Shown: one piece after another, positions 1,826 through 36,498 of the stretch
Numbering within the stretch: the stretch's first letter is position 1
Layout: every line of letters starts with the position of its first letter
DNA from: a virus
Strand: one strand, 5' to 3'
DNA: 39,313 bases
UHGV virus genome: UHGV-0145328
The notes under the pieces: model-generated
Seen by the model: the letters and a program-made list of their open reading frames with translations, nothing else
What the model was told of the DNA's origin: nothing
Databases searched by the model: none
Made by a program: the position numbers and the translations under genes

Positions 1826-3502
1826 CTAAGCAACATGTAGTTCATCGTTGGCGGAAGTGGCTGCTTTGCGCTCCTGCTCAATAGCTAGAGACTCTCTATA
1901 TTCTTTCGCCTCTGCAAACATTGTCCAGTGGGCGTTGATGTTCATGTCTTCAATAACTGATTTGATTTCTTTTAAATTTACGTTAAAAAACTCTTTTCGT
2001 GAGTTAATTTTATTGACCTGCTTTTCGTTGAAAACTTTATGCAGATGGTTTTCTAATGATGGTGCATCATCACTATAAATCATCGCATGAACATCGAACG
2101 AAAAAGGAACACTAGCATCTCCGAGTTCACGAACACGATCAAGTGGTTCAAGGCGGCGTGTCATTCCAATTTTATATACATCTTCGCCAAATGAACCAAT
2201 ATTACTAATGATATAGACGTGGCCTGATCTGGTTTGTTGAGCCATAGAAATAGCTCGTTGATTTTTAGCTTCAGCTTCTTCATATTTTAACTGTAGTTCA
2301 GCTATTTTTTGCTCTAAAGCTAAGCGTTGTTCTTCATTTGCAAGCATAAGTTCTTTCGTTGCTTTATTTATAGCTTGCTGAATAGCTTTTTCTTCTTTTT
2401 CAGCTTCTTTTATCGCTTTTTCATATTCTCTACGAGCTCTTTCCTCTTCACGAAGCTGTTCTTTAATCCTTCTTTGCTCTTCTTTTTCTTCGAGCATAAT
2501 TTCATTAACTGCTACACCCCATTTTAGCTCGTTGAGTCTTGCCTGAAGATAGATGTCACTTATTTTTGCGGACCTAAAGGCAGAGCCATTGTAATTTACT
2601 AGTTGAAATGCATCTTTTATTTCTTGGGAAAGTTTTCCAAAATTGTTGTGTTTGACTTTTGATAAAATACTGTCAACTCTTCCATTGAAGGCATCCAAAA
2701 CAAAGTTTATGGCAGTATTACGCCTGTTTTGCTCAACATAATCACACGAAGCAGCTTTATTAGTTTTTATTAATGATTTGGTTAACTCTCTGGCTTTTTG
2801 TAATTCCTTGCCTGCATCTGTAAATTCATAATTTTCTGCCAGCTCATCAAGTACACTACGGTTAGGGATGATCCATTCATCACCATAACCTTCAATTTTA
2901 TTTTTCATTGATTTTGCAACTGCTTCATATTTTTCTGCAAACTCTTTAGCTTCATATGCTGAACCAGCAATCTCCTTTGCTCTTTCTTCTGCATCAGAAA
3001 TAATTTTTACTGCATTGTCATTAGCATTTGAGATTAGCTCATTTGCTTTATTATTAGCATTATCAAGACGTTCTTTGGCTTTCAGGCGTGCATCGCGAGC
3101 GTCTTTGGTGATTGCTATAGCTTCGCTATTAGCGTTGCTTATTGTCATCTGAGCTTGATAATTTGCTTCGTTTACTGTTTTAGCCGCCTTAATTTGGGCT
3201 TCATCTATTTTTTGCTTGGCTATTGAGTCCGCATTTTTTATCTTATTCTCTGCATCCATTACTGCGCTGTGCAATTCTTCGTATTGCCACAATGGTGCTG
3301 CTCGCCCTTCAAGCTCTGATAATTCTCGTACGGTCTGTGCTAGTTTTTCTTGATTTTCAATCAGTTGGTTAGAAAGGGCTATGTTGTTAGCTGTCAGGTT
3401 ATCTATAGCCGCTTTGTGTTTTTTACTTTGTTTAAATAATATTACAGCTAGAACAGGGGCGAGAAATGCTAATAAGAGTATAACGATGGCAAATGAATTC
3501 AT
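1826..3502 (-). CDS. Membrane-anchored coiled-coil protein with DUF4041-like region and C-terminal T5orf172 (GIY-YIG-like) domain; cargo gene
   Basis: N-terminal hydrophobic helix (SFAIVILLLAFLAPVLAVILF); long K/E/A-rich heptad regions; C-terminal block GHVYIISNIGSFGEDVYKIGMTRRLEPLDRVRELG...VPFSFDVHAMIYSDD typical of T5orf172; visibly AT-rich; co-oriented with cI and int. Confidence 0.7.
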   Translation of the reverse strand: MNSFAIVILLLAFLAPVLAVILFKQSKKHKAAIDNLTANNIALSNQLIENQEKLAQTVRELSELEGRAAPLWQYEELHSAVMDAENKIKNADSIAKQKIDEAQIKAAKTVNEANYQAQMTISNANSEAIAITKDARDARLKAKERLDNANNKANELISNANDNAVKIISDAEERAKEIAGSAYEAKEFAEKYEAVAKSMKNKIEGYGDEWIIPNRSVLDELAENYEFTDAGKELQKARELTKSLIKTNKAASCDYVEQNRRNTAINFVLDAFNGRVDSILSKVKHNNFGKLSQEIKDAFQLVNYNGSAFRSAKISDIYLQARLNELKWGVAVNEIMLEEKEEQRRIKEQLREEERARREYEKAIKEAEKEEKAIQQAINKATKELMLANEEQRLALEQKIAELQLKYEEAEAKNQRAISMAQQTRSGHVYIISNIGSFGEDVYKIGMTRRLEPLDRVRELGDASVPFSFDVHAMIYSDDAPSLENHLHKVFNEKQVNKINSRKEFFNVNLKEIKSVIEDMNINAHWTMFAEAKEYRESLAIEQERKAATSANDELHVA

Positions 3503-3522
3503 TTTAAAATCCTTTTACTATA

Positions 3523-4119
3523 TTAATTCGAGACTATTGTACTTCTTATACAAGCAACCACTTCAATATCAGAAAATGCACATTCAAAGCTATTCTCTGC
3601 TGTTGTAATTTTAATCATTCCTTTAGGAAGCCTTGTGATTTTTCGAATGGAATAGGTTCCGTCGATATTGATTAACCAGTTTCCATCAAGTACTTCAGAA
3701 AATTTTTGATCACAAATGTATGTGACGAGTCCATCCTGAACAACAATTGGTGATGAAAGGTTTGCAGGAAGAAATGATGAATCGAAGACATATGAACCGT
3801 CTTCAATCATTTTGCCTGCGGCAAGGCGAAACTTAACAAGCTCTTCTGTAGCTGCTGTCAGCGAGCTTTGCTTAAGGCCTTGTCCGGTAGTTAACCATTT
3901 GAGGGAGGTTCCTGTTTCAAGAGCACATTGGATTATCCAGTCAGCAGGAAATGTATCCCGCAAATACCTGTTCGCTAGTGTGCTTTTTGATACTTCCAAG
4001 TGATCAGCTAAAGCCTGTCGTGTCGTAAAGCCATAGGCTTCGACTAATCGCTCAATCGCAGCCTTACCACCTTTATTGGGATTTATTTTGATCTCACTTG
4101 GGTACTTTGATGTTGACAT
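3523..4119 (-). CDS. cI: Immunity repressor CI (186-type)
   Basis: 198 aa with N-terminal HTH-like region, divergent from apl/cII; position between int and apl matches the 186 lysogeny module. Confidence 0.75.
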   Translation of the reverse strand: MSTSKYPSEIKINPNKGGKAAIERLVEAYGFTTRQALADHLEVSKSTLANRYLRDTFPADWIIQCALETGTSLKWLTTGQGLKQSSLTAATEELVKFRLAAGKMIEDGSYVFDSSFLPANLSSPIVVQDGLVTYICDQKFSEVLDGNWLINIDGTYSIRKITRLPKGMIKITTAENSFECAFSDIEVVACIRSTIVSN

Positions 4120-6269: not shown

Positions 6270-7123
6270 GCACCATCCTGAAATGGGCGGGAAATAAAAC
6301 CGCCATTATGCCAGAACTGAAAAAATACCTTCCTGCTGGCCCGCGACTGGTTGAACCTTTCGCGGGTTCCTGTGCTGTGATGATGGAAACGGATTATCCC
6401 AGCTATCTGGTTGCGGATATTAATCCTGATTTAATCAACCTCTATAAAAAGGTTGCCGCTGATTGTGAATCGTTTATATCTCGCGCCAGAGTTTTATTTG
6501 AGATCGCAAACAGGGAGGTGGCTTATTACAACATAAGGCAGGAGTTTAACTGCTCAACTGAAATTACTGATTTCATGAAAGCGGTATATTTCCTGTATCT
6601 CAATCGTCACGGTTACCGTGGTTTATGTCGCTATAACAAGAGCGGGCATTTCAACATTCCCTACGGTAATTATAAAAATCCGTATTTCCCTGAAAAAGAA
6701 CTTCGCACATTTGCAGAAAAAGCCCAGCGAGCAACGTTTATCTGCGCCAGCTTTGATGAAACGCTGGCGATGTTGAAGGCGGGAGATGTGGTGTATTGCG
6801 ATCCGCCATATGACGGTACGTTTTCCGGCTATCACACTGATGGTTTCACTGAAGATGACCAGTATCACCTGGCATCCGTTCTTGAACATCGGTCATCAGA
6901 AGGACATCCGGTCATTGTTTCTAACAGTGACACATCCCTGATCCGTTCGCTGTATCGCAATTTTACTCACCACTATATCAAGGTAAAACGCAGCATCGGT
7001 GTGGCAGCTGGCGAGGGTAAATCAGCAACAGAAATCATTGCTGTTTCCGGGCCGCGCTGCTGGATGGGATTTGATTATTCGCGTGGCGTGGATAGTTCTG
7101 CCGTGTACGGAGTACGTGCATGA
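6266..7123 (+). CDS. dam: DNA adenine methyltransferase (Dam-like, GATC type)
   Basis: [11 protein letters not shown]… N-terminus, FAGSCAV AdoMet-binding motif and DPPY catalytic motif; start overlaps the stop of the preceding gene. Confidence 0.85.
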
Positions 7124-10120: not shown

Positions 10121-10233
10121 TTTTGTCAATAGACGCTTGTTTTTACTAATCAAAAAGGGTTACATATGAGTGAGAGGCGATGTCAATCAGATATCGCCTT
10201 GTTTTTTGTCAAGAAAAGAATAATAGGCTAAAA

Positions 10234-10911
10234 ATGAAAATTAATAATGTAGCGTTACCAATATCTCTTGCTGTAATCCTAACTGGTTGCGTGCCACATG
10301 CTTCTAACCGAAATATCACTGCTATTGAAGTGGTGAAGCCTGCTATTGGGCAAAGTGCTACCGCCTACATGGGCGATCCCATTATCACATCTGCTACTGG
10401 ATTTAAAACGGACGTACTAGAACTTGGTGCGGCTAATGGTGCATTGTCTTCTATCGCTGCTGGTACATATTGCAGTGAGGGGAATGGAATTTACCGCAAT
10501 TATCATAACCCTCAAGCTGTTGCGTTAAAAAATCTCTATGGGCAAATCGGTAACTATGTTGATTATGTTAGTTACGATGCTGCAAAAAATGAGATATCAC
10601 CGCCAAATGGTACTTCTTATACTGCATCAGAAATTTCTATCAAACGTGTTCCTGATGGGCTGTGTCGAGTTAGTAACTCATTGGTTAAGACTATCGAATA
10701 CAATGGAAATGCAGGCGGTGTAATGAAGTTCACCTATCGTGAATTTGCAAACGATATGGCTCGTGCAGCATTTACAACAGATTTTTCTGTAGATTCTAAG
10801 GGAAGTGACGTTATCGCTTACAAAGGTGCCAAGTTCAAAGTGAACAAGGCTGATAACTCGTCTATTTCTTATACAATTATTTCTGGCTTTGACAAGGCTG
10901 TCACGTTCTAG
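10234..10911 (+). CDS. Lipoprotein of unknown function (moron)
   Basis: Signal peptide plus lipobox (MKINNVALPISLAVILTGC); AT-rich; followed by a hairpin terminator. Confidence 0.65.
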   Translation: MKINNVALPISLAVILTGCVPHASNRNITAIEVVKPAIGQSATAYMGDPIITSATGFKTDVLELGAANGALSSIAAGTYCSEGNGIYRNYHNPQAVALKNLYGQIGNYVDYVSYDAAKNEISPPNGTSYTASEISIKRVPDGLCRVSNSLVKTIEYNGNAGGVMKFTYREFANDMARAAFTTDFSVDSKGSDVIAYKGAKFKVNKADNSSISYTIISGFDKAVTF

Positions 10912-11013
10912 GTTTCACGCTTACTGAGTATGTTACGATTTTGCACATTCTGCATAAACGCGCATGTCTATGCTGCATGAGATCGCATGATCGTTTGAGG
11001 ATCTTTTGTGTTA

Positions 11014-11040
11014 AGGCCCGCCAGTTCTGGCGGGCTTTTG
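11014..11040 (+). terminator. Rho-independent terminator
   Basis: GCCCGCC / GGCGGGC stem with 6-nt loop followed by TTTT. Confidence 0.6.
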
Positions 11041-11084
11041 CGTAGATCATGCAGGTGCATGAAAACCACTACATAAAGCGGGCA

Positions 11085-11103
11085 GGCGTGGCGGGGATAC
11101 GAG
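11085..11103. other. Candidate cos cohesive-end site
   Basis: GGCGTGGCGGGGATACGAG resembles the 19-nt P2/186 cohesive end as I remember it (GGCGTGGCGGGGAAAGCAT for 186); recalled, not verified. Confidence 0.35.
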
Positions 11104-11255
11104 CGCGCGTTAAGCCATATAAGAGTTATATATTGATTTGATTGCTGGACATACATACAGTATCGCTCTATCATCTAATAAATCTTAGGGTATTTGACAA
11201 TGTTTGGATAAAATGGAACCTAACTTATTCATAATCCGCTAAACAGGGATGTCAG

Positions 11256-12170
11256 ATGCCATACCAATTGGTAGAGCTTAGCCCCGTAGCTAACGATCTT
11301 GAACAGTTAGGAACCAAAGAGAAGTTTTGGTTCTATTTCTCCGATGACACTGTAAATTTGCAGTTGTTTAAGTACTCTAGGCCAGGTACTGGCGAGCATT
11401 GGTCTGAAAAGTGTGCTGCTGAGTTATGTCATTTGCTTAACATTCCACATGCTAGCTATGATTTGGCGCGATACAATGGTCGATTCGGTGTGGTGACTCA
11501 GAATATCATTCCATCTGGTTTCCGGATGGTAATGGGAAATGAAGTGCTTCACAGTTCGACATTCGATTATCCTGGGCCTTTACAAGCCGGGGAAAAGCCG
11601 GTAAGGGTCAGAGAACACACTGTCACAAGGGTCTTGGGTTGTTTAGATAGGGAATCTATCAAGCCTCCTCCGAGTGTATATGATCTAACCGGGCTAAATG
11701 CAGCAGATGTATTTTGTGGATATTTGATGCTCGATGCACTTGTGAGTAATCAAGATCGCCACCATGAAAATTGGGCAATCATGCTTAACAATGAAACTGG
11801 TGAGCAGTTTTTGTGTCCAACATACGATCATGCCGCTAGTTTAGGAAGGGAGATGTTAGATGATGAGCGTAACGAACGGCTTAATACTAAAGATAAAAAT
11901 CGACAAATCCCATGTTTTGTAAGAAAAGCTCGCTCTGAGCTATTCAAAGCAAAAACTGATAAAAAGCCCTTGCTGACTGTTGAAGCATTTCAACATGCAG
12001 TTGAAGGGAGAGTTGCCGCTCGCGACCATTGGTTAGGTAAGTTGAGCGTTTTAACAGAAGATTCCATTACAGATGTGTTTAACCAAGTGCCTTCATCGTG
12101 TATATCCGACAGTGCACGTAGATTTGCAACGTTAATGGTAATGGAAAATCGCAGAAGGTTACTAGAATGA
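11256..12170 (+). CDS. HipA-like Ser/Thr kinase core-domain protein
   Basis: 304 aa with LGTKEKFWF (cf. HipA VAGAQEKT), VSNQDRHHENWAIM (cf. HipA catalytic GATDGHAKNFSV) and CPTYDHAASLG (cf. HipA TPFYDIIS); AT-rich cargo. Confidence 0.6.
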   Translation: MPYQLVELSPVANDLEQLGTKEKFWFYFSDDTVNLQLFKYSRPGTGEHWSEKCAAELCHLLNIPHASYDLARYNGRFGVVTQNIIPSGFRMVMGNEVLHSSTFDYPGPLQAGEKPVRVREHTVTRVLGCLDRESIKPPPSVYDLTGLNAADVFCGYLMLDALVSNQDRHHENWAIMLNNETGEQFLCPTYDHAASLGREMLDDERNERLNTKDKNRQIPCFVRKARSELFKAKTDKKPLLTVEAFQHAVEGRVAARDHWLGKLSVLTEDSITDVFNQVPSSCISDSARRFATLMVMENRRRLLE

Positions 12171-12907
12171 CTAATACAAACTCCGTTTACGTCGCATGGC
12201 AGGCACCAGATACCAGAGACTGGCATGTTGTTGGTAACTTGCAAGAGCGCAAATCGGGGTATGTTTTCAGGTATACCAAAGGTGCTCTTAAATCTTCTAA
12301 ATTTACAAAGTTTAGCGGCATGAGTGATGTTCGTGAAACTTATGTATCGGAAGAATTGTTTCCTCTTTTTAAAAATCGCCTTTTATCACCGAGACGTCCA
12401 GAGTATCCGAGTTTCATTAAATGGCTTGGATTTGAAGAAGATAAGGTAAATCCTATCGATATTCTTGCTCGCTCGGGAGGCTTACGAAGCACTGATCAGC
12501 TGCAGATTTTCAAAAAAATTGATTTTGATTCTGATGGTAACTTTGAGCATTTTTTCTTCTTACATGGACTTGGTTACTTGAATAGCTTAGCTAATGCTCG
12601 TGTATCTGAATTGAAACCGGGGCAAATTTTGCGTCTTTGCTTGGATCTTCAAAATGAATACGATGGGGATGCTGTTGTCGTTCGTGCAGATAAACCAGCT
12701 GAAATCGTTGGTTACTGCCCTAGGTATTTAAGTAATGACATCAAGAAGATGTTATTGGATGATCCAAAATCAATCACTTTAACGGTCGAAAAGATTAGCG
12801 ATGATGCTCCTCATAACTATCGGTTATTATGTAAATTATCAGGGGTACTAAGCCAAGCCTGTCAATCGACGCTGATTCCTCAAGATGAGTTTGAACCTAT
12901 TGAGTAA
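12167..12907 (+). CDS. Partner protein of the kinase; N-terminus possibly HipA N-subdomain-like (HipS-like), C-terminal domain unknown
   Basis: 246 aa; start overlaps the kinase stop (ATGA); N-terminal VYVAWQAPDTRDWHVVGNLQERKSGYVFRYTKGAL loosely resembles the HipA N-terminus. Confidence 0.5.
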   Translation: MTNTNSVYVAWQAPDTRDWHVVGNLQERKSGYVFRYTKGALKSSKFTKFSGMSDVRETYVSEELFPLFKNRLLSPRRPEYPSFIKWLGFEEDKVNPIDILARSGGLRSTDQLQIFKKIDFDSDGNFEHFFFLHGLGYLNSLANARVSELKPGQILRLCLDLQNEYDGDAVVVRADKPAEIVGYCPRYLSNDIKKMLLDDPKSITLTVEKISDDAPHNYRLLCKLSGVLSQACQSTLIPQDEFEPIE

Positions 12908-24945: not shown

Positions 24946-25543
24946 TCTGCTGCCACCGGGTTCAACGCCACTGGAGCGCCGACTGGCGCAAACCTGCAAC
25001 GGGATTTCTGATCTGCAGGTGTCACTGCGTGACTTGTGGAATCCGGCAACCTGTCCGGTCAGTTTCCTGCCTTATCTCGCCTGGGCGTTCTCTGTGGATC
25101 GCTGGGACGAGGGCTGGACAGAAAGCGTCAAACGCCAGGTAGTGAAGGATGCTTTTTATATTCATCAGCACAAAGGAACCACCAGTGCCGTACGGCGGGT
25201 GGTGGAGCCGTTCGGCTTCCTGATCCGCATTATTGAGTGGTGGCAGACCGGAGAAACACCGGGCACGTTTCGCCTGGACATTGGTGTGCAGGACCAGGGC
25301 ATCACTGAAGATACCTATCTGGAACTTGAGCGACTGATAAGCGATGCCAAACCATGTAGCCGTCACATGATCGGCATGTCCATCAATCTGCAGACCAGCG
25401 GCCCGCATTGGGTGGGAGCCGTCAGTTATCTTGGCGAAGAAATCACGATCTATCCGTATATCAACGAAACAATTATTTCCGGCGGCACCGCGCATGAAGG
25501 CGGGGCGGTCCATGTTATTGACACAATGAGAGTGAATCCATGA
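24938..25543 (+). CDS. I: Baseplate / tail-fibre attachment protein (P2 gpI-like)
   Basis: 201 aa; synteny. Confidence 0.75.
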   Translation: MNSLLPPGSTPLERRLAQTCNGISDLQVSLRDLWNPATCPVSFLPYLAWAFSVDRWDEGWTESVKRQVVKDAFYIHQHKGTTSAVRRVVEPFGFLIRIIEWWQTGETPGTFRLDIGVQDQGITEDTYLELERLISDAKPCSRHMIGMSINLQTSGPHWVGAVSYLGEEITIYPYINETIISGGTAHEGGAVHVIDTMRVNP

Positions 25544-27126
25544 GCACAAAATTTTATACCCTGCTGACGGATATTGGCGCGGCGAAACTTGCCAGCGCCG
25601 CCGCGCTCGGTGTGCCGCTAAAAATTACCCATATGGCGGTGGGCGATGGCGGCGGAGCATTGCCAACGCCGGACGCAAAGCAGACGGCACTGGTAAATGA
25701 GAAACGCCGGGCTGCGCTGAATATGCTCTATATCGACCCGCAGAACAGCAGCCAGATTATTGCTGAACAGGTGATCCCTGAAAATGAGGGGGGTTGGTGG
25801 ATACGTGAAGTGGGTCTGTTTGATGAGTCCGGGGCATTGATTGCCGTAGGCAACTGCCCGGAAAGCTATAAGCCGCAACTGGCTGAAGGCAGCGGGCGCA
25901 CCCAGACCGTGCGCATGGTGCTGATTACCAGCAGTACGGACAATATCACCCTGAAAATCGACCCTGCTGTAGTGCTGGCAACCCGTAAATACGTGGATGA
26001 TGAAGTCCTGGAATTAAAGCTGTATGTGGATGACCAGATGAGAAACCACATTGCCGCACAAGATCCTCATACCCAGTATGCGCAGAAACATAATCCGACA
26101 TTTACCGGAGAACCAAAAGCGCCGACGCCTGCAGCAGGAAATAACACCACGCGGATTGCGACCACTGAGTTTGTTCAGGCCGCTATTACTGCTCTGATTA
26201 ACGGTGCGCCAGCCACGCTGGATACACTGAAAGAAATTGCCGCAGCCATTAACAATGACCCGAAATTCAGTACCACCATTAACAATGCGCTGGCACTAAA
26301 AGCGCCGCTGTCGAGTCCGGCACTCACCGGAACGCCAACAGCACCTACTGCGGCGCAGTCGGTCAACAATACACAGATTGCCACTACGGCTTTTGTGAAA
26401 TCGGCGATTGCAGGAATGGTGGGTTCTGCACCTGCGGCACTGGATACACTGAACGAACTGGCGGCGGCACTGGGGAATGATCCGAACTTTGCCACGACAA
26501 TGCTTAATGCGCTGGCAGGTAAACAACCGCTGGACAATACGCTTACCAATTTGAGTGGAAAGGATGTAGCTGGTCTTCTCACATACCTTGGTTTGGGAGA
26601 AGGTTCGGCATTACCCGTTGGCGTGCCTGTTCCGTGGCCTTCCGCCACTCCGCCAACAGGCTGGCTGAAATGCAACGGTGCCGCTTTTTCTGCTGAAGAA
26701 TACCCGGAACTGGCAAAGGCTTATCCGACAAATAAATTGCCTGATTTACGTGGTGAGTTTATTCGTGGCTGGGATGACGGGCGTGGAGTGGATGCGGGAC
26801 GTGCCTTGCTAAGTCTTCAGGATGACTCTTTTGAAGCGCACAGGCATGAGTCCTTTTTTTACGCGGGTATTTCTCGCAATGAAACACCATTAAAAAATCT
26901 TCCAAGTTCAGACGAGATGCTGACTTTAAGTTCTACAACTAATGCCTTGTCCCCGGACGGTATTGATGCCACTAATTCGTTAATTGGTAATGATGATTAC
27001 AACTGTCTGATTGAAGGAAATAAAAATAACAAACGAACAGCGACGGGGTTGAGTACCAGTATTGTCGGTGCAGCAGAGACACGCCCACGTAATATTTCAT
27101 TTAATTACATTGTGAGGGCTGCATGA
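25540..27126 (+). CDS. H: Tail fibre protein (P2 gpH-like); C-terminal part inside an invertible segment
   Basis: 528 aa with repetitive Ala/Thr-rich middle; the C-terminus after ...TYLGLGE is replaceable by the antisense segment at 28123..28469. Confidence 0.85.
   Translation: MSTKFYTLLTDIGAAKLASAAALGVPLKITHMAVGDGGGALPTPDAKQTALVNEKRRAALNMLYIDPQNSSQIIAEQVIPENEGGWWIREVGLFDESGALIAVGNCPESYKPQLAEGSGRTQTVRMVLITSSTDNITLKIDPAVVLATRKYVDDEVLELKLYVDDQMRNHIAAQDPHTQYAQKHNPTFTGEPKAPTPAAGNNTTRIATTEFVQAAITALINGAPATLDTLKEIAAAINNDPKFSTTINNALALKAPLSSPALTGTPTAPTAAQSVNNTQIATTAFVKSAIAGMVGSAPAALDTLNELAAALGNDPNFATTMLNALAGKQPLDNTLTNLSGKDVAGLLTYLGLGEGSALPVGVPVPWPSATPPTGWLKCNGAAFSAEEYPELAKAYPTNKLPDLRGEFIRGWDDGRGVDAGRALLSLQDDSFEAHRHESFFYAGISRNETPLKNLPSSDEMLTLSSTTNALSPDGIDATNSLIGNDDYNCLIEGNKNNKRTATGLSTSIVGAAETRPRNISFNYIVRAA
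26588..26602. repeat. Left inversion crossover site (15-bp TTGGTTTGGGAGAAG)
   Basis: Exact inverted copy at 28470..28484; encodes GLGE in H and in the antisense alternative fibre segment. Confidence 0.65.
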
Positions 27127-27728
27127 TGTATAACGCCATCTTAAATAGTAAATTTATTGCCACAAAGGCAGGAGAGATTACCGTTTATAACTATGACAGT
27201 GAGACACGGGAGTATATTTCTGCATCAACTGAATATCTTGCTGTGGGTGTCGGTATCCCTGCATATTCCTGTTTAGATGCTCCTGGCACACATAAGGCTG
27301 GTTATGCAATCTGCCGTTCGGCAGATTTAAACTCATGGGAATATGTGCCAGACCATCGCGGTGAAGTTGTCTATAACACCGAAACGGGAGAATCAAAAGA
27401 AATCACAGCTCCGGGTGATTACCCTGAAAATACAACCACTACCGTCCCGTTAACGCCATACGATAAATGGGATGGTGAGAAATGGGTGACAGATACTGAG
27501 GCACAACACGGTGCCGCAGTAGAAGCGGCAGAAGCACAGCGCCAGTCACTGATTGATGCAGCAATGGCTTCCATTAGTCTGATTCAGCTGAAATTACAGG
27601 CCGGGCGGAAACTGACGCAGGCAGAAACAACCCGGCTTAACTCTGTGCTGGATTACATTGACGCGGTGACAGCAACAGATACCAGCACCGCGCCGGATAT
27701 CATCTGGCCTGAACTGCCGGAGGCGTAG
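27123..27728 (+). CDS. G: Tail fibre assembly chaperone (P2 gpG-like)
   Basis: 201 aa ending in the conserved …DTSTAPDIIWPELPEA motif. Confidence 0.8.
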   Translation: MMYNAILNSKFIATKAGEITVYNYDSETREYISASTEYLAVGVGIPAYSCLDAPGTHKAGYAICRSADLNSWEYVPDHRGEVVYNTETGESKEITAPGDYPENTTTTVPLTPYDKWDGEKWVTDTEAQHGAAVEAAEAQRQSLIDAAMASISLIQLKLQAGRKLTQAETTRLNSVLDYIDAVTATDTSTAPDIIWPELPEA

Positions 27729-28119
27729 GCCATTCAATATCTGGAGCACTGGAGGTATCAACCAGTTCCAGTGCGTCCAGATAATCCAGCCACAAATTAT
27801 ATTGCGCCAGTTCCTCACCTTTCAGACGACCAATAGCCGCTTTACCAGGCCATTGCCTGCTGTTCATGTGCTCGTTGGCTTCATTAATAAGTTTTCCTTT
27901 TTTCAACTCTGCCAATGCAATAAGGTTTTCTTTTGATAAAGGTGGTTGCTCTGTCAAAACCGGATATCCCTCCTGATTGCTGACTATTTTCATGCCATTA
28001 TCCTGACCATCCAGTAGTGACAGCCATTCATCCGTGGTTATCTCAACAGCATCTGAAGGTGCTTTATTTAAATCGGTAAAAAAACCATTTTCTTTTTGTG
28101 AATAGAAGTATCTGTCCAT
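27700..28119 (-). CDS. Alternative tail fibre assembly chaperone (inverted orientation)
   Basis: 139 aa ending …DTSSAPDIEWPTPPA, same C-terminal motif as G, on the opposite strand. Confidence 0.75.
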   Translation of the reverse strand: MDRYFYSQKENGFFTDLNKAPSDAVEITTDEWLSLLDGQDNGMKIVSNQEGYPVLTEQPPLSKENLIALAELKKGKLINEANEHMNSRQWPGKAAIGRLKGEELAQYNLWLDYLDALELVDTSSAPDIEWPTPPAVQAR

Positions 28120-28122
28120 TTA

Positions 28123-28524
28123 TCAATCTCCAAAAGCAATCCAGTAAGCAAAAGGATTTATTCCTTGCTCAGTCACAGATGACATTAGGGAAAATTGCGA
28201 TGGTGAAACAGGTAATGCTGCAAAACTAACCATTGTTGACACACCTGACCGTGCATTATCGTACGATGCAACAACACAATAATTGGTATTGCTGAAAGAT
28301 ATCGGCAGGGTGATATTTACAGGTGAGCCTAATGGCCCTGATGCTGATATTCCCATTTGAATGATGGTTCCATCAGGCAATTTTCTCCAGCGATTAGAAC
28401 TCGGATTTCTTTTCCAGGATGACATATCCGGTATCTGATTTTCTCCTGTGCCCACATCCCTTTTCGCCGCTTCTCCCAAACCAACGTTTAAGAAAATGCA
28501 GCGATTACGACTAACTGGCATCAT
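28123..28524 (-). CDS. Alternative tail-fibre C-terminal segment (expressed as an H fusion after inversion)
   Basis: Antisense ORF encoding …VGLGEAAKRDVG… across the crossover repeat; fibre-like Ser/Thr/Gly-rich composition. Confidence 0.6.
   Translation of the reverse strand: MMPVSRNRCIFLNVGLGEAAKRDVGTGENQIPDMSSWKRNPSSNRWRKLPDGTIIQMGISASGPLGSPVNITLPISFSNTNYCVVASYDNARSGVSTMVSFAALPVSPSQFSLMSSVTEQGINPFAYWIAFGD
28470..28484. repeat. Right inversion crossover site (inverted copy of 26588..26602)
   Basis: CTTCTCCCAAACCAA is the reverse complement of TTGGTTTGGGAGAAG; about 70 bp upstream of the invertase gene. Confidence 0.65.
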
Positions 28525-28551
28525 CCCCGGTTTTTATTCAGGGGATTGATC

Positions 28552-29118
28552 ATGCTTATTGGCTATGTACGCGTGTCAACAAATGACCAGAACACCGATT
28601 TGCAACGTAATGCACTGAACTGCGCGGGATGTGAGCGGATTTTTGAGGACAAAATCAGTGGCACTAAGTCCGACAGACCGGGGCTTAAAAAACTGCTCAG
28701 GACACTATCGGCAGGTGACACACTGGTTGTCTGGAAGCTGGACAGGTTGGGGCGCAGTATGCGGCATCTTGTTACGCTGATAGAAGAGTTGCGCCAGCGC
28801 GGCGTGAATTTCCGAAGCCTGACTGACAGTATTGATACCAGTACCCCAATGGGCCGTTTCTTTTTTCATGTCATGGGTGCCCTGGCTGAAATGGAACGCG
28901 AACTGATAGTTGAACGTACCAGGGCAGGGCTGGCTGCAGCTCGTGCTAAAGGCAGAGTAGGTGGACGCCGTCCTAAGTTGACTACCGAACAGTGGGCACA
29001 GATTGGGCGTTTACTCGAGGCCGGAGAATCAAGACAGCGTATTGCACTGATTTTTGATGTAGGCGTTTCTACCATTTATAGAAAATTTCCGGCAAATAAG
29101 AGCAATGAATCTCCCTGA
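28552..29118 (+). CDS. Serine DNA invertase (Hin/Gin/Cin/Pin family)
   Basis: MLIGYVRVSTNDQNTDLQRNAL…TLVVWKLDRLGRS…GRFFFHVMGALAEMERELIVERT closely matches the Hin/Gin family; C-terminal HTH. Confidence 0.9.
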   Translation: MLIGYVRVSTNDQNTDLQRNALNCAGCERIFEDKISGTKSDRPGLKKLLRTLSAGDTLVVWKLDRLGRSMRHLVTLIEELRQRGVNFRSLTDSIDTSTPMGRFFFHVMGALAEMERELIVERTRAGLAAARAKGRVGGRRPKLTTEQWAQIGRLLEAGESRQRIALIFDVGVSTIYRKFPANKSNESP

Positions 29119-29166
29119 ATCAGCATTATTTTGATTATTCCTGCAAGCGGACAAATACCGTCATTT

Positions 29167-29184
29167 TGTGTGAATAACGGTACA
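29167..29184. promoter_or_regulatory. Late-promoter dyad TGT-N12-ACA upstream of FI
   Basis: TGTGTGAATAACGGTACA, sharing the TGTGTG…GGTACAA shape with the dyad at 15792. Confidence 0.55.
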
Positions 29185-29260
29185 ACTGCGCTTAGCTGTT
29201 TGTCGGACACAATCACTTCAACATAGGGCGAAGCCTAATCCAATCAGGAGGTTCGCCGCT

Positions 29261-30433
29261 ATGGCTCAGGATTACCACCACGGGGTGCGCGTTGTTGAAG
29301 TCAACGAAGGCACCCGATCCATTACCACGGTGAGCACCGCCATCGTGGGTATGGTCTGCACGGGCGATGATGCCGATGCAAAAATGTTTCCTCTTAATAA
29401 ACCCGTGCTGATCACTGATGTGCTGACTGCCAGCGGTAAAGCGGGTGAGTCCGGTACGCTGGCCCGTTCGCTGGACGCCATCGCTGACCAGGCAAAACCC
29501 GTGACCGTTGTTGTGCGTGTGCCGCAGGGTGAAACGGAAGAAGAAACCACGACCAATATCATCGGAGCAGTGACCGCTGAAGGTAAAAAAACAGGCATGA
29601 AAGCCTTGTTATCTGCCCAGTCACAGCTTGGCGTTAAACCGCGCATTCTCGGCGTGCCAGGCCACGACACCAAGGCGGTAGCTACTGAGTTGCTGAGCGT
29701 GGCGCAAAGCCTGCGTGGATTTGCTTACCTGTCAGCGTATGGCTGCAAGACGGTACAGGAGGCGATCACTTACCGTGAAAACTTCAGCCAGCGCGAAGGG
29801 ATGCTGATCTGGCCTGACTTTACTGGCTGGGACACGGTGCTGAATGCCGAAGCAACGGCATATGCCACCGCCCGTGCGCTTGGTCTGCGCGCCAAAATTG
29901 ACGAGCAGACCGGATGGCACAAAAGCCTGTCCAACGTGGGCGTGAACGGTGTCACCGGAATTTCTGCTGATGTGTTCTGGGATCTGCAGGACACGGCAAC
30001 AGATGCGGGACTGCTGAACCAGAACGACGTCACCACCCTTATCCGCAAAGACGGTTTCCGCTTCTGGGGTTCCCGCTGCCTGAGTGATGACCCGCTCTTT
30101 GCCTTCGAAAACTACACCCGCACGGCGCAAGTACTTATGGACACAATGGCAGAAGCGCATATGTGGGCGGTGGACAAACCGCTGAACCCGTCGTTGGCCC
30201 GCGACATTATCGAAGGTATCCGCGCCAAAATGCGCAGCCTGGTCAGTCAGGGCTATCTCATTGGTGGTGATTGCTGGCTGGATGAGTCGGTGAACGACAA
30301 AGATACTCTGAAAGCCGGGAAGCTCACCATCGACTACGACTACACGCCAGTGCCGCCACTTGAAAATCTGATGCTGCGTCAGCGCATCACCGATCAGTAC
30401 CTGGTGAATTTCTCCAGCCAGGTCAGCGCGTAA
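29261..30433 (+). CDS. FI: Contractile tail sheath protein (P2 FI-like)
   Basis: 390 aa; synteny FI-FII-E-T-U-D. Confidence 0.85.
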
Positions 30434-31449: not shown

Positions 31450-34400
31450 TAATAACCTGCGCCTGCAGGTCATTCTTAATGCGGTTGACAAACTCACCCG
31501 CCCATTCCGTGCTGCACAGGCCAGTTCGAAAGCGCTGGCTGGCGCAATTCAGAATACCCGAAACAGCCTCAAAGAACTGAATAAGCAGGTCGGCAGAATT
31601 GATGAATTTCGCAAGACGCGCTCGCAACTAGCCATAACAGCCAACAACCTGAACGCAGCCCGCGAAGAGGCGGCAAAACTCGCCACACAATTTGCTGCCA
31701 CTAACAGACCAACCGCCGCGCAGGCAAAGTTATTCAGTCAGGCCAAAACACGAGTACAGGAACTTCAGCAGACCTATAACGGCTTGTTGGGGGCGGTCCA
31801 GAGACAACGTCAGGCACTTAAAGAATCAGGGATTGACACCAGACAACTCAGTAGTGCCCAGCGAGAACTTAAGAAAAATGCTGAAGAAACAAGGCAGGCA
31901 CTGGAGGGCCAGCAAAAAGCACTTAAACGTCTGGGTGAACAACAGGCACGGATGAACGCTGCCAGAGAACAATACTCAAGACGGCTTGAAGTGCGCGATC
32001 GCATCGCAGGAGCCGGAGCCACTACCACGGCTGCAGGGCTGGCAATGGGTGCGCCAGTGATGGCGGCAGTAAAAAGCTATACCAGCATGGAAGATGCCAT
32101 GAAAGGTGTGGCAAAGCAGGTCAATGGTCTGCGTGACGATAATGGCAACCGCACTGCACGTTTTTATGAAATGCAGGATGCCATCAAGGCTGCCAGCGAA
32201 CAGTTGCCGATGGAAAACGGTGCGGTGGACTTCGCTGCACTGGTTGAAGGTGGTGCGCGCATGAACGTCGCAAACCCTGACGACAGCTGGGAAGACCAGA
32301 AACGTGACCTGCTGGCCTTCGCCAGTACGGCAGCAAAGGCAGCAACAGCCTTTGAGCTGCCAGCGGATGAACTGTCAGAAAGTCTGGGGAAAATCGCCCA
32401 GCTCTACAAAATACCTACCCGCAATATTGAACAGCTCGGCGATGCGCTGAACTATCTGGATGATAACGCCATGTCGAAAGGGGCGGACATCATTGATGTG
32501 ATGCAACGTCTGGGCGGTGTGGCTGACCGTCTGGATTATCGTAAAGCGGCGGCGCTGGGTTCCACCTTCCTGACACTGGGCGCTGCGCCGGAGGTTGCAG
32601 CCAGTGCAGCAAACGCGATGGTGCGTGAATTGTCCATTGCCACCATGCAAAGCAAGAGTTTCTTTGAAGGGATGAATCTGCTGAAACTCAATCCTGAAGT
32701 GATTGAAAAGCAGATGACGAAGGATGCGATGGGAACTATCCAGCGCGTACTGGAGAAGGTGAACGCACTGCCGCAGGATAAACGTCTGTCTGCCATGACC
32801 ATGTTGTTTGGTAAAGAGTTTGGCGATGACGCGGCGAAACTGGCAAACAACCTGCCGGAACTGCAGCGCCAGCTAAAGCTGACAGCGGGCAATGATGCGC
32901 TCGGCTCCATGCAGAAAGAATCCGACATTAACAAGGACTCACTTTCTGCGCAGTGGTTGCTGGTCAAAACCGGAGCGCAGAACACCTTCAGCAGCCTGGG
33001 CGAAACGCTGCGCCAGCCGCTGATGGATATTCTGTACACGGTGAAAAACATCACGGGGGCGTTGCGCCGCTGGGTGGAAGCTAACCCGGAACTGACAGGC
33101 ACACTGATGAAAGTAGCCGCTGTGGTGGCTGCGGTTACCGTAGGCCTCGGCACCTTAGCGGTGGCGCTGGCTGCAGTGCTGGGGCCGCTGGCAGTGATCC
33201 GTCTGGGATTCTCTGTGCTGGGTATCAAAACGTTACCTTCCGTTACGGCAGCAGTAACTCGAACCAGCAGCGCGTTGTCCTGGCTGGCTGGCGCACCACT
33301 GGCACTGCTGCGACGCGGGCTTGCTTCATCGGGCAACGCCGCAGGTTTACTTACTGCGCTGTTGTCGTCTTTGCGCCGCACGGCATCACTGACGGGAAAT
33401 GTCCTGAAAACTGTAGCAGGTGCGCCGGTTGCACTTTTGCGGTCTGGATTATCCGGTTTACGTGCTGTTGCTGTGATGTTTATGAATCCTTTGGCGGTAC
33501 TGCGCGGTGGACTGGTCGCCGCAGGCACGGTGCTGCGAGTACTGGCATCTGGTCCACTGGCGATGCTGCGCGTTGCCCTGTATGCCGTATCTGGTCTGTT
33601 AGGTGCTCTGCTCAGTCCGATAGGTCTTGTGGTTACTGCACTGGCGGGCGTGGCGCTGGTTGTCTGGAAATACTGGCAACCCATCACCGCATTTCTTGGT
33701 GGCGTGGTGGAAGGATTCAAAGCGGCGGCAGGTCCCGTCAGTGCAGCATTCGAACCGCTTAAGCCCGTGTTCCAGTGGATTGGCGACAAAGTACAGGCGC
33801 TGTGGGGCTGGTTTACTGATCTGCTGACGCCCGTTAAGTCGACCTCTGCCGAACTGCAGAGTGCAGCGGCAATGGGGCGGCGATTCGGAGAGGCACTGGC
33901 GGAAGGGCTGAATATGGTCATGCATCCGCTGGACTCCCTGAAATCCGGCGTTTCCTGGTTGCTGGAGAAACTTGGCATTGTCAGTAAAGAGGCCGCAAAG
34001 GCAAAACTGCCGGAAAGCGTGACGCGTCAGCAACCTACGACGGTGAATGCAGACGGTAAAGTGATGATGCCATCGGGTGGTTTTCCATCATGGGGATATG
34101 GCTTTGCGGGGATGTATGACAGCGGCGGGTATATCCCGCGCGGGCAGTTTGGCATCGTCGGTGAAAACGGGCCGGAAATTGTTAACGGCCCGGCAAATGT
34201 GACCAGCCGGAGAAATACCGCTGCACTGGCTGCCGTTGTTGCCGGAATGATGGGCGTTGCTGCCGCGCCTGCAGAGCTTCCACCGTTGCACCCTTTGGCA
34301 CTTCCCGCGAAAGGCGGCGAAGCGATGGTGAGTCGTGCAGCCACTGTGCCGCCCGTTCAACGGATTGAGGCACCGATGCAGATCATCATTCAGACGCAGC

Positions 34401-36471: not shown

Positions 36472-36498
36472 ATAAATTTCAGGCAACAAAAAACCCAT
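36472..36498. repeat. attR core (27-bp direct repeat)
   Basis: Identical to 590..616. Confidence 0.85.

Follow-up and report, generated by a model that had tools for sequence, protein, structure and literature searches.

The mechanism of site-specific DNA inversion, the crossover sites at which it takes place and the enzyme family that carries it out have been known since the 1980s. Here we describe an invertible tail-fibre segment in the UHGV virus genome UHGV-0145328, a single stretch of 39,313 bp that we call the window. Very probably it is a switch of the Pin type, in which site-specific inversion toggles the tail-fibre operon of a P2/186-like Escherichia coli prophage between two states, and we take the switch to be real and probably active. 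Systems of this kind are familiar, this one essentially down to its sequence, and P2-like prophages of E. coli have been shown to flip such segments before; the example described here leaves current understanding unchanged.

The closest relative is the P segment of prophage e14 in E. coli K-12 (stfP-tfaP-tfaE-stfE-pinE). Genes follow one another in the same order at the two loci, the invertase lying beyond the right site, and the 15/16-bp repeat is common to both; the e14 repeat, which is inverted by PinE and PinQ, was given in a 2025 paper as TTGGTTTGGGAGAAGG and equals the repeat of the window (PMC12529663). The plus-strand tip and chaperone of the window (tip A and chaperone A below) are homologous to StfE and TfaE. 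The carriers differ: e14 is a defective lambdoid prophage, whereas the window holds a P2/186-like myovirus prophage that appears complete. In e14 the fibre has StfP as its constant part, in the window a P2 H-like one (Phage_tail_fib), and the Gp53-like tip of the window, tip B, is just about 30% identical to e14 StfP. The modules of K-12 e14 also stand in the arrangement opposite to the sequenced orientation of the window. Coexisting orientations of the K-12 segment were found by whole-genome sequencing and polymerase chain reaction (PCR) (PMC4272514).

The original prediction had proposed that inversion would swap the receptor-binding tip and its chaperone as in the G segment of phage Mu. The swap is borne out by an in-silico inversion and by natural relatives, as described below, while the closest model is the e14 P segment rather than Mu. 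The G segment with its invertase Gin follows the same logic, laid out as Sc / Sv-U / U'-S'v / gin with an enhancer in the 5' coding region, where the window has a putative one, but its core is TC/GA and its length 3 kb, against TT/AA and 1.9 kb in the window, and its tips and chaperones are unrelated to those of the window at the DNA level. The C segment of P1, inverted by Cin, has the TT/AA core of the window and similar half-sites; there, however, the segment measures 4.2 kb, cin adjoins cixL at the end opposite to that of the window invertase, and the constant part of the fibre is much longer. Hin of Salmonella belongs to the same invertase subfamily and uses 26-bp sites with AA/TT cores, and in the native Hin system the Fis enhancer lies about 100 bp from the nearest site (PMC3798978), a spacing close to the 96 bp from the right core to the proximal 15-mer of the putative enhancer in the window. 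Unlike the window invertase, which lies outside its segment and swaps the 3' ends of coding sequences, hin lies inside the segment and moves a flagellin promoter. A description in P2-like prophages comes from enteropathogenic E. coli (EPEC) E2348/69, whose phase-variable tail-fibre loci carry an invertase and inverted repeats and whose variants coexist in clonal cultures. Whole-genome sequencing revealed the inversion in these prophages (Goldberg et al. 2014, PMC4272514), and for a four-variant locus the paper states that PCR confirmed it. That locus has 3 repeats and 4 variants, whereas the window has 2 sites and 2 states, and we liken the two by description.

Crossover sites and the segment between them

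From our searches, the 15-mer TTGGTTTGGGAGAAG has exactly 2 copies in the window, at 26588-26602 on the plus strand and at 28470-28484 on the minus strand, and a search of the whole window allowing up to 2 mismatches returned no additional copy. Its expected count is 0.04, and 0 of 100 dinucleotide-preserving shuffles contained 2 matches; the exact 15-bp repeat is non-random. With a repeat finder the two arms lengthen to 27 nt (26576-26602 and 28470-28496), over which complementarity is 81%. The original prediction had placed the exact repeat correctly, but its start of the element at 26588 does not hold, since the functional site is 26 bp long and begins at 26576. Each 26-bp site consists of two 12-bp half-sites flanking a 2-bp core, and the 15-mer corresponds to the core, the inner half-site and 1 more base:

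26576-26601, left crossover site, pixL-like, 26 bp: TTCTCACATACC-TT-GGTTTGGGAGAA, core TT at 26588-26589
28471-28496, right crossover site, pixR-like, 26 bp: TTCTCCCAAACC-AA-CGTTTAAGAAAA, core AA at 28483-28484

The TT and AA cores are complementary on the plus strand, and the two sites are therefore inverted relative to each other. Compared with e14, the left site shares 22 of 26 positions with pixL (CTCTCGAAAACC-TT-GGTTTGGGAGAA), the inner half being the same throughout, and the right site shares 25 of 26 with pixR (TTCTCCCAAACC-AA-CGTTTATGAAAA). Both also resemble cixL and cixR of P1 (TT/AA core) and gixL and gixR of Mu (TC/GA core). A scan of the 39-kb window for the palindromic consensus, tolerating as many as 8 mismatches, returned the two 26-bp sites and nothing else. 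Since there are only two sites, the system would be a simple two-state one; a third or cryptic site, as in Min- or shufflon-like multi-inversion systems, is ruled out by the same scan. An internal inverted similarity at 27647-27664 and 27773-27790 was also considered as a recombination site and rejected, for it corresponds to the homologous C-termini of the two chaperones (LDYIDAV and LDYLDAL).

The genes in and around the segment are as follows:

25540-27126, plus strand: H, the tail-fibre gene, 528 amino acids (open reading frame (ORF) map, Pfam)
25540-26587, plus strand: constant N-terminal part of H, about 349 amino acids, ending ...TYLGLGE across the site (Phage_tail_fib, residues 1-150, E 4e-65)
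26602-27126, plus strand: tip A, the StfE-like variable C-terminus of H in the sequenced orientation (Collar, E 4.7e-15)
27123-27728, plus strand: chaperone A, a gpG / TfaE-like tail-fibre assembly protein (Caudo_TAP, E 2.3e-31)
27700-28119, minus strand: chaperone B, a TfaP-like tail-fibre assembly protein (Caudo_TAP, E 2.3e-26)
28123-28469, minus strand: tip B, the alternative fibre C-terminus (Gp53-like_C, E 1.3e-13)
28552-29118, plus strand: DNA invertase, a small serine recombinase of the Pin/Cin/Gin/Hin subfamily, directly outside the invertible segment

The ORF map and the Pfam matches agree with the reading of the original prediction, in which the H C-terminus and gpG lie on the plus strand and a second chaperone and an alternative tip on the minus strand: the constant N-terminus of the fibre stands outside the segment, and two opposed C-termini stand inside it, each followed by its own chaperone. 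Mu, P1 and e14 are annotated with this arrangement as well. The constant part is collinear with that of relatives in both orientations. The 528-amino-acid H spans the left site into tip A, so that the sequenced orientation joins H to the plus-strand tip, as had been proposed. The first 65 or so residues of tip A past GLGE are nearly identical to e14 StfE, and the tip also carries a weak gp12-type receptor-binding domain (Pfam S_tail_recep_bd, E 0.0024). Chaperone A shares 89% amino acid identity with e14 TfaE, and chaperone B 55% with e14 TfaP. The reading frame of tip B runs on to 28485 on the minus strand, giving ...NVGLGE across the right site; the ORF translations thereby confirm that both fibre versions read GLGE through the repeat. 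On in-silico inversion of 26588-28484, H stays in frame and becomes a 469-amino-acid H' with the Gp53-like tip, directly followed by chaperone B, and both H and H' read ...YLGLGE.... A natural H' is annotated in E. coli LD26-1 and in p13TMH22-1, a circular record described below. The prophage fibre gene is one with two alternative 3' ends, of which one assembly shows one, and host-range prediction, prophage typing and the comparison of "tail fibre" proteins should count both states. Of additional note, the two convergent chaperone genes share their last 29 nt (27700-27728), and the same overlap is present in the e14 tfaP/tfaE annotation (record positions 3518-3546).

The junction itself is not confined to these two tips. 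The exact 27-nt left site had no match in a one-genome-per-species collection, whereas the viral contigs of IMG/VR yielded 95 stretches that contain it. In 75 IMG/VR contigs with the identical 27-nt site, at least 8 tip families follow in frame directly after GLGE, among them GSALPVG..., AAKR[DN]VGTG..., ARYVIQRGANANGA..., AAKMPAATALASSA..., GAPAIGVPFFWPSA... and the StfP-like GAKLNAATATLGRT.... This range of tips shows the 27-nt left site as a general junction for fibre-tip exchange, and GLGE together with the pix site serves as a universal junction by which many tip families are plugged onto one P2-type fibre shaft. In one IMG/VR contig the segment is flanked on either side by the complete 27-mer (44-70 and 1946-1972), which forms a perfect inverted repeat.

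Both orientations in close relatives

The opposite orientation, on which the original prediction depended, exists: it is found in near-identical prophages with the same 26-bp sites, including two copies in the assembly of a single strain. With the whole cassette as query against 5,426 complete E. coli genomes, and at least 80% coverage required, the native orientation was present in 25 genomes and the inverted one in 12. No cassette-wide match of 99% or more was present in these 5,426 genomes, and the best native left junction reached 96.3%; close E. coli relatives, at about 95% nucleotide identity, have been sequenced in both orientations. A synthetic inverted left junction (constant part of H joined to tip B, 600 nt) was matched over its full length at 99.0% in strain LD26-1.

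Two pairs of relatives locate the exchange. In strain 13TMH22, the chromosomal prophage has its segment in native orientation, whereas the same prophage on a circular record of 36 kb has it inverted. The 6.3-kb flanks of the two copies are 100.000% and 99.984% identical, with a single gap between them; the segment aligns in reverse at 99.95% identity, and the alignments switch within the 15-bp repeat. Both 26-bp sites in these copies are identical to those of the window. The second pair is formed by the sister strains LD22-1 and LD26-1, which have identical flanks and differ by the inversion of the segment. An A/G polymorphism of the inner half-site moves with the segment while the outer half-sites stay, and the crossover is therefore confined to 7 bp containing the core. 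For close relatives, flipping with exchange at the core of the site is thus seen directly; for the copy in the window, we infer from its sequence that the same would occur.

Assembly errors, or RecA-dependent recombination between inverted homologies, could also produce differences in orientation, and assemblers can indeed be misled by inverted repeats. The segment also contains the second inverted similarity mentioned above, between the related chaperone C-termini. The exact repeat, however, is just 15 bp, far under an efficient RecA substrate, a dedicated invertase adjoins the segment, and in two independent pairs the breakpoints fall within the 26-bp sites, with the half-site polymorphism mapping the exchange to the core. 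We consider this explanation hardly credible, and site-specific inversion by the invertase remains our interpretation.

The circular record of 13TMH22 (the two records of the strain are NZ_CP019256.1 and NZ_CP019257.1) is p13TMH22-1, a 36,172-bp "plasmid" that copies the chromosomal P2-like prophage; in both copies, IS1203 has inserted into a tail gene. Excision or replication of the phage genome could account for this record, as could the assembly of mixed orientations; either way, it implies that both orientations were present in the 13TMH22 culture. In the other pair, 6 single-nucleotide polymorphisms distinguish LD22-1 from LD26-1 within 270 bp of the StfE-like tip (LD22-1 stretch 6419-6689), while the 6.3-kb flanks are identical. 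Such clustering points to gene conversion, with a paralogous tip at another place in the genome as the donor.

The invertase and its putative enhancer

The gene that follows the segment encodes the serine invertase that had been predicted there. Its ORF is intact, and its N-terminus, MLIGYVRVSTNDQ, holds the catalytic Ser9. The inactivating change at this serine that would have counted against the original prediction is absent. Pfam assigns Resolvase (E 2.2e-53, residues 3-135) and HTH_7 (E 1.4e-15, residues 138-181), and the protein aligns over its full length with the Gin structures 3uj3 and 4m6f (E about 1e-92). The protein is 85.3% identical to PinE (e14), 77.4% to Cin (P1) and 73.4% to Gin (Mu); these alignments are free of internal gaps, and the lengths differ at the C-terminal tail only. 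The label "Hin-like" given by the original prediction is right as to the Hin/Gin/Cin/Pin family, but the nearest relative is PinE rather than Hin. The stretch MLIGYVRVSTNDQNTDLQRNAL is the same in PinE, and also in Gin except for the GTG-encoded first residue of the latter. The start codon is most likely the ATG at 28552, which gives MLIGYVRVST as in PinE and Cin, and not the TTG at 28546. Matches of the invertase in NCBIfam (XisF, Mpi and others) were all sub-threshold, far under the cut-offs, and the fibre proteins had none. A DNA invertase is already annotated in many phage records with the same cassette, among them Escherichia phage 500465-1, Klebsiella phage KP12 and "P2" from O157:H43 T22.

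Invertases that depend on Fis and the enhancer uniquely conserve basic residues in helix B (Hin 47, 48 and 51) and, likewise, Q151, R154 and L155 in helix 1 of the DNA-binding domain (McLean et al., PMC3798978). The window invertase keeps all of these as K46, K47, R50, Q150, R153 and L154 (numbering equal to Hin minus 1), and it keeps the wild-type M114 at the residue that is mutated to Fis independence in crystallised Gin, so that it carries no known mutation of that type. The enhancer itself was sought by alignment to the annotated cin enhancer, which the P1 record places at 31678-31749, corresponding to nt 19-90 of cin:

28570-28641, nt 19-90 of the invertase gene: putative Fis-dependent recombinational enhancer

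This stretch aligns without gaps to cin (78%), pinE (87.5%) and gin (72%). Two 15-mers of the form G-N13-C, at 28573-28587 and 28622-28636, are conserved in position and lie 49 nt apart, and the centre of the proximal one is 96 bp from the right core. Synonymous-codon identity inside and outside nt 19-90 was 16/23 versus 61/121 for pinE, 10/19 versus 44/112 for cin and 8/22 versus 43/104 for gin, a small and inconsistent excess from few sequences. We rate the enhancer as plausible and not higher, because the stretch also encodes a very conserved peptide and because the synonymous excess is small and inconsistent. From these alignments and residues, enhancer function and Fis dependence may be expected of the window system.

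A switch with this architecture might no longer flip, the invertase being unexpressed or the outer half-sites too weak, so that tip A has become fixed. No promoter-like site was seen upstream of the invertase in our promoter and terminator scan of 26400-29400, where match counts were not above those of shuffles, and the right site departs from the palindromic consensus at 4 positions. The junction between the constant part of H and the StfE-like tip was also found in 377 E. coli genomes, compared with 9 for the junction with tip B. These counts are, however, confounded by cassettes with other second tips, and cix, gix and pix sites normally have imperfect outer halves. The 26-bp sites of the window are those of 13TMH22, and the intact invertase is 98.9% identical in protein sequence to those of 13TMH22 and the LD strains, relatives that have been sequenced both ways; the corresponding enhancer stretches are 97-99% identical. 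A frozen relic is therefore distinctly improbable in our view, and we retain the reading of a working switch.

Between the right site and the start of the invertase gene, at 28513-28541 on the plus strand, the sequence AACTGGCATCATCCCCGGTT TTTATTCAGG makes up a terminator-like hairpin with a run of T behind it. Transcription of the late fibre operon could be stopped there before it reaches the invertase gene. Hairpins of this type are no more numerous in the region than in shuffles.

Proposed mechanism and prophage context

We propose the following scheme for the switch. Dimers of the serine invertase (28552-29118) would bind the two 26-bp sites, and the bound sites would synapse on the Fis-bound enhancer at the 5' end of the invertase gene. 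Ser9 would then cleave both strands at the central TT/AA dinucleotide, and rotation of the subunits by 180 degrees followed by religation would leave the 1.9-kb segment inverted. In the sequenced state, the constant part of H would be continued after ...GLGE by tip A (StfE-like, Collar), with chaperone A (TfaE-like) behind it; in the flipped state, H would be continued in frame by tip B (Gp53-like), with chaperone B (TfaP-like) behind it. Virions from a population of lysogens would carry one of two receptor-binding tips, which would amount to a bet-hedging switch of host range. We infer from their domains that the two tips would differ in receptor specificity and host range.

Several points weigh against this interpretation. 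The difference in receptors is drawn solely from the unrelated domains of the tips, Collar and a weak S_tail_recep_bd on one side and Gp53-like_C on the other. Within the scanned region 26400-29400, no sigma-70-like promoter was found from the right site to the start of the invertase gene. Conservation of the enhancer stretch is, in the available alignments, inseparable from protein-coding constraint, and p13TMH22-1 could be an assembly by-product and not a true episome.

The segment might also serve the host, besides or instead of altering host range. In such a scheme, a free protein consisting of the tip only would mask the receptor and block adsorption of other phages. In e14, inversion of the P segment gives a chimeric StfE2, which is reported to block T2 adsorption (PMC12529663), and in the window a homologous leader ORF crosses the right site in both orientations. 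Tip B is part of this ORF as sequenced (133 amino acids, 28123-28524 on the minus strand), whose ATG at 28524 lies outside the segment and whose leader begins MMPVSRNRCIFLNVGLGE...; the leader is joined to whichever tip faces the right site and is the counterpart of e14 stfE/StfE2. Since the repeat is identical to that of e14, PinE or PinQ of the host could act on the window segment. Nevertheless, the leader ORF has no promoter-like site in the region scanned, and ORFs of the same kind in Mu are only gene-finder predictions. The prophage, moreover, seems complete with its own late activator ogr, and a fibre switch has an obvious function for the phage. We therefore regard a host-serving switch as quite unlikely. 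By analogy with e14, a tip-only protein might act as a block to adsorption or superinfection that is toggled by the flip, with cross-talk through PinE and PinQ between the window segment and e14 in both directions; this, too, we hold to be unlikely. A switch of host range in the service of the phage is thus the reading that we carry forward.

As to the setting of the switch, direct repeats of 27 bp (ATAAATTTCAGGCAACAAAAAACCCAT) mark the two ends of the prophage, at 590-616 (attL) and 36472-36498 (attR), and are likely the attL/attR core. The prophage is inserted between a TetR-family gene (20-586) on one side and ybjL on the other. The right flank (the ybjL, ybjM and grxA side) is E. coli chromosome, 100% identical to TUM13066 and muskdeer13-4, both of which have a related prophage at the same place. 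The gene set comprises an integrase, CI and CII of the 186 type, replication genes, head and tail genes, and ogr. Judged by these genes, the prophage appears complete, so that a switch of host range, if it works, would be of consequence to a viable phage. The gene next to the invertase belongs to the tail:

29261-30433, plus strand: tail sheath gene (tail sheath domains)

Two further loci in the prophage are of note. In the interval between the integrase gene and cI, a gene for 558 amino acids (1826-3502, minus strand) matches the defence family PD-Lambda-1 in PADLOC (E 2e-120) and DUF4041 and T5orf172/MUG113 in Pfam; from these matches it looks like prophage-borne anti-phage cargo. Elsewhere, a 243-amino-acid ORF with no family match (10180-10911, plus strand) precedes two overlapping plus-strand genes, 11256-12170 and 12167-12907, which match components A and B of the PADLOC candidate system PDC-M03 (E 2e-122 and 7e-93) and carry a weak HipA_C-like domain and a HIRAN domain. 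This plus-strand cluster (10180-12907) is placed between the replication genes and the portal gene.

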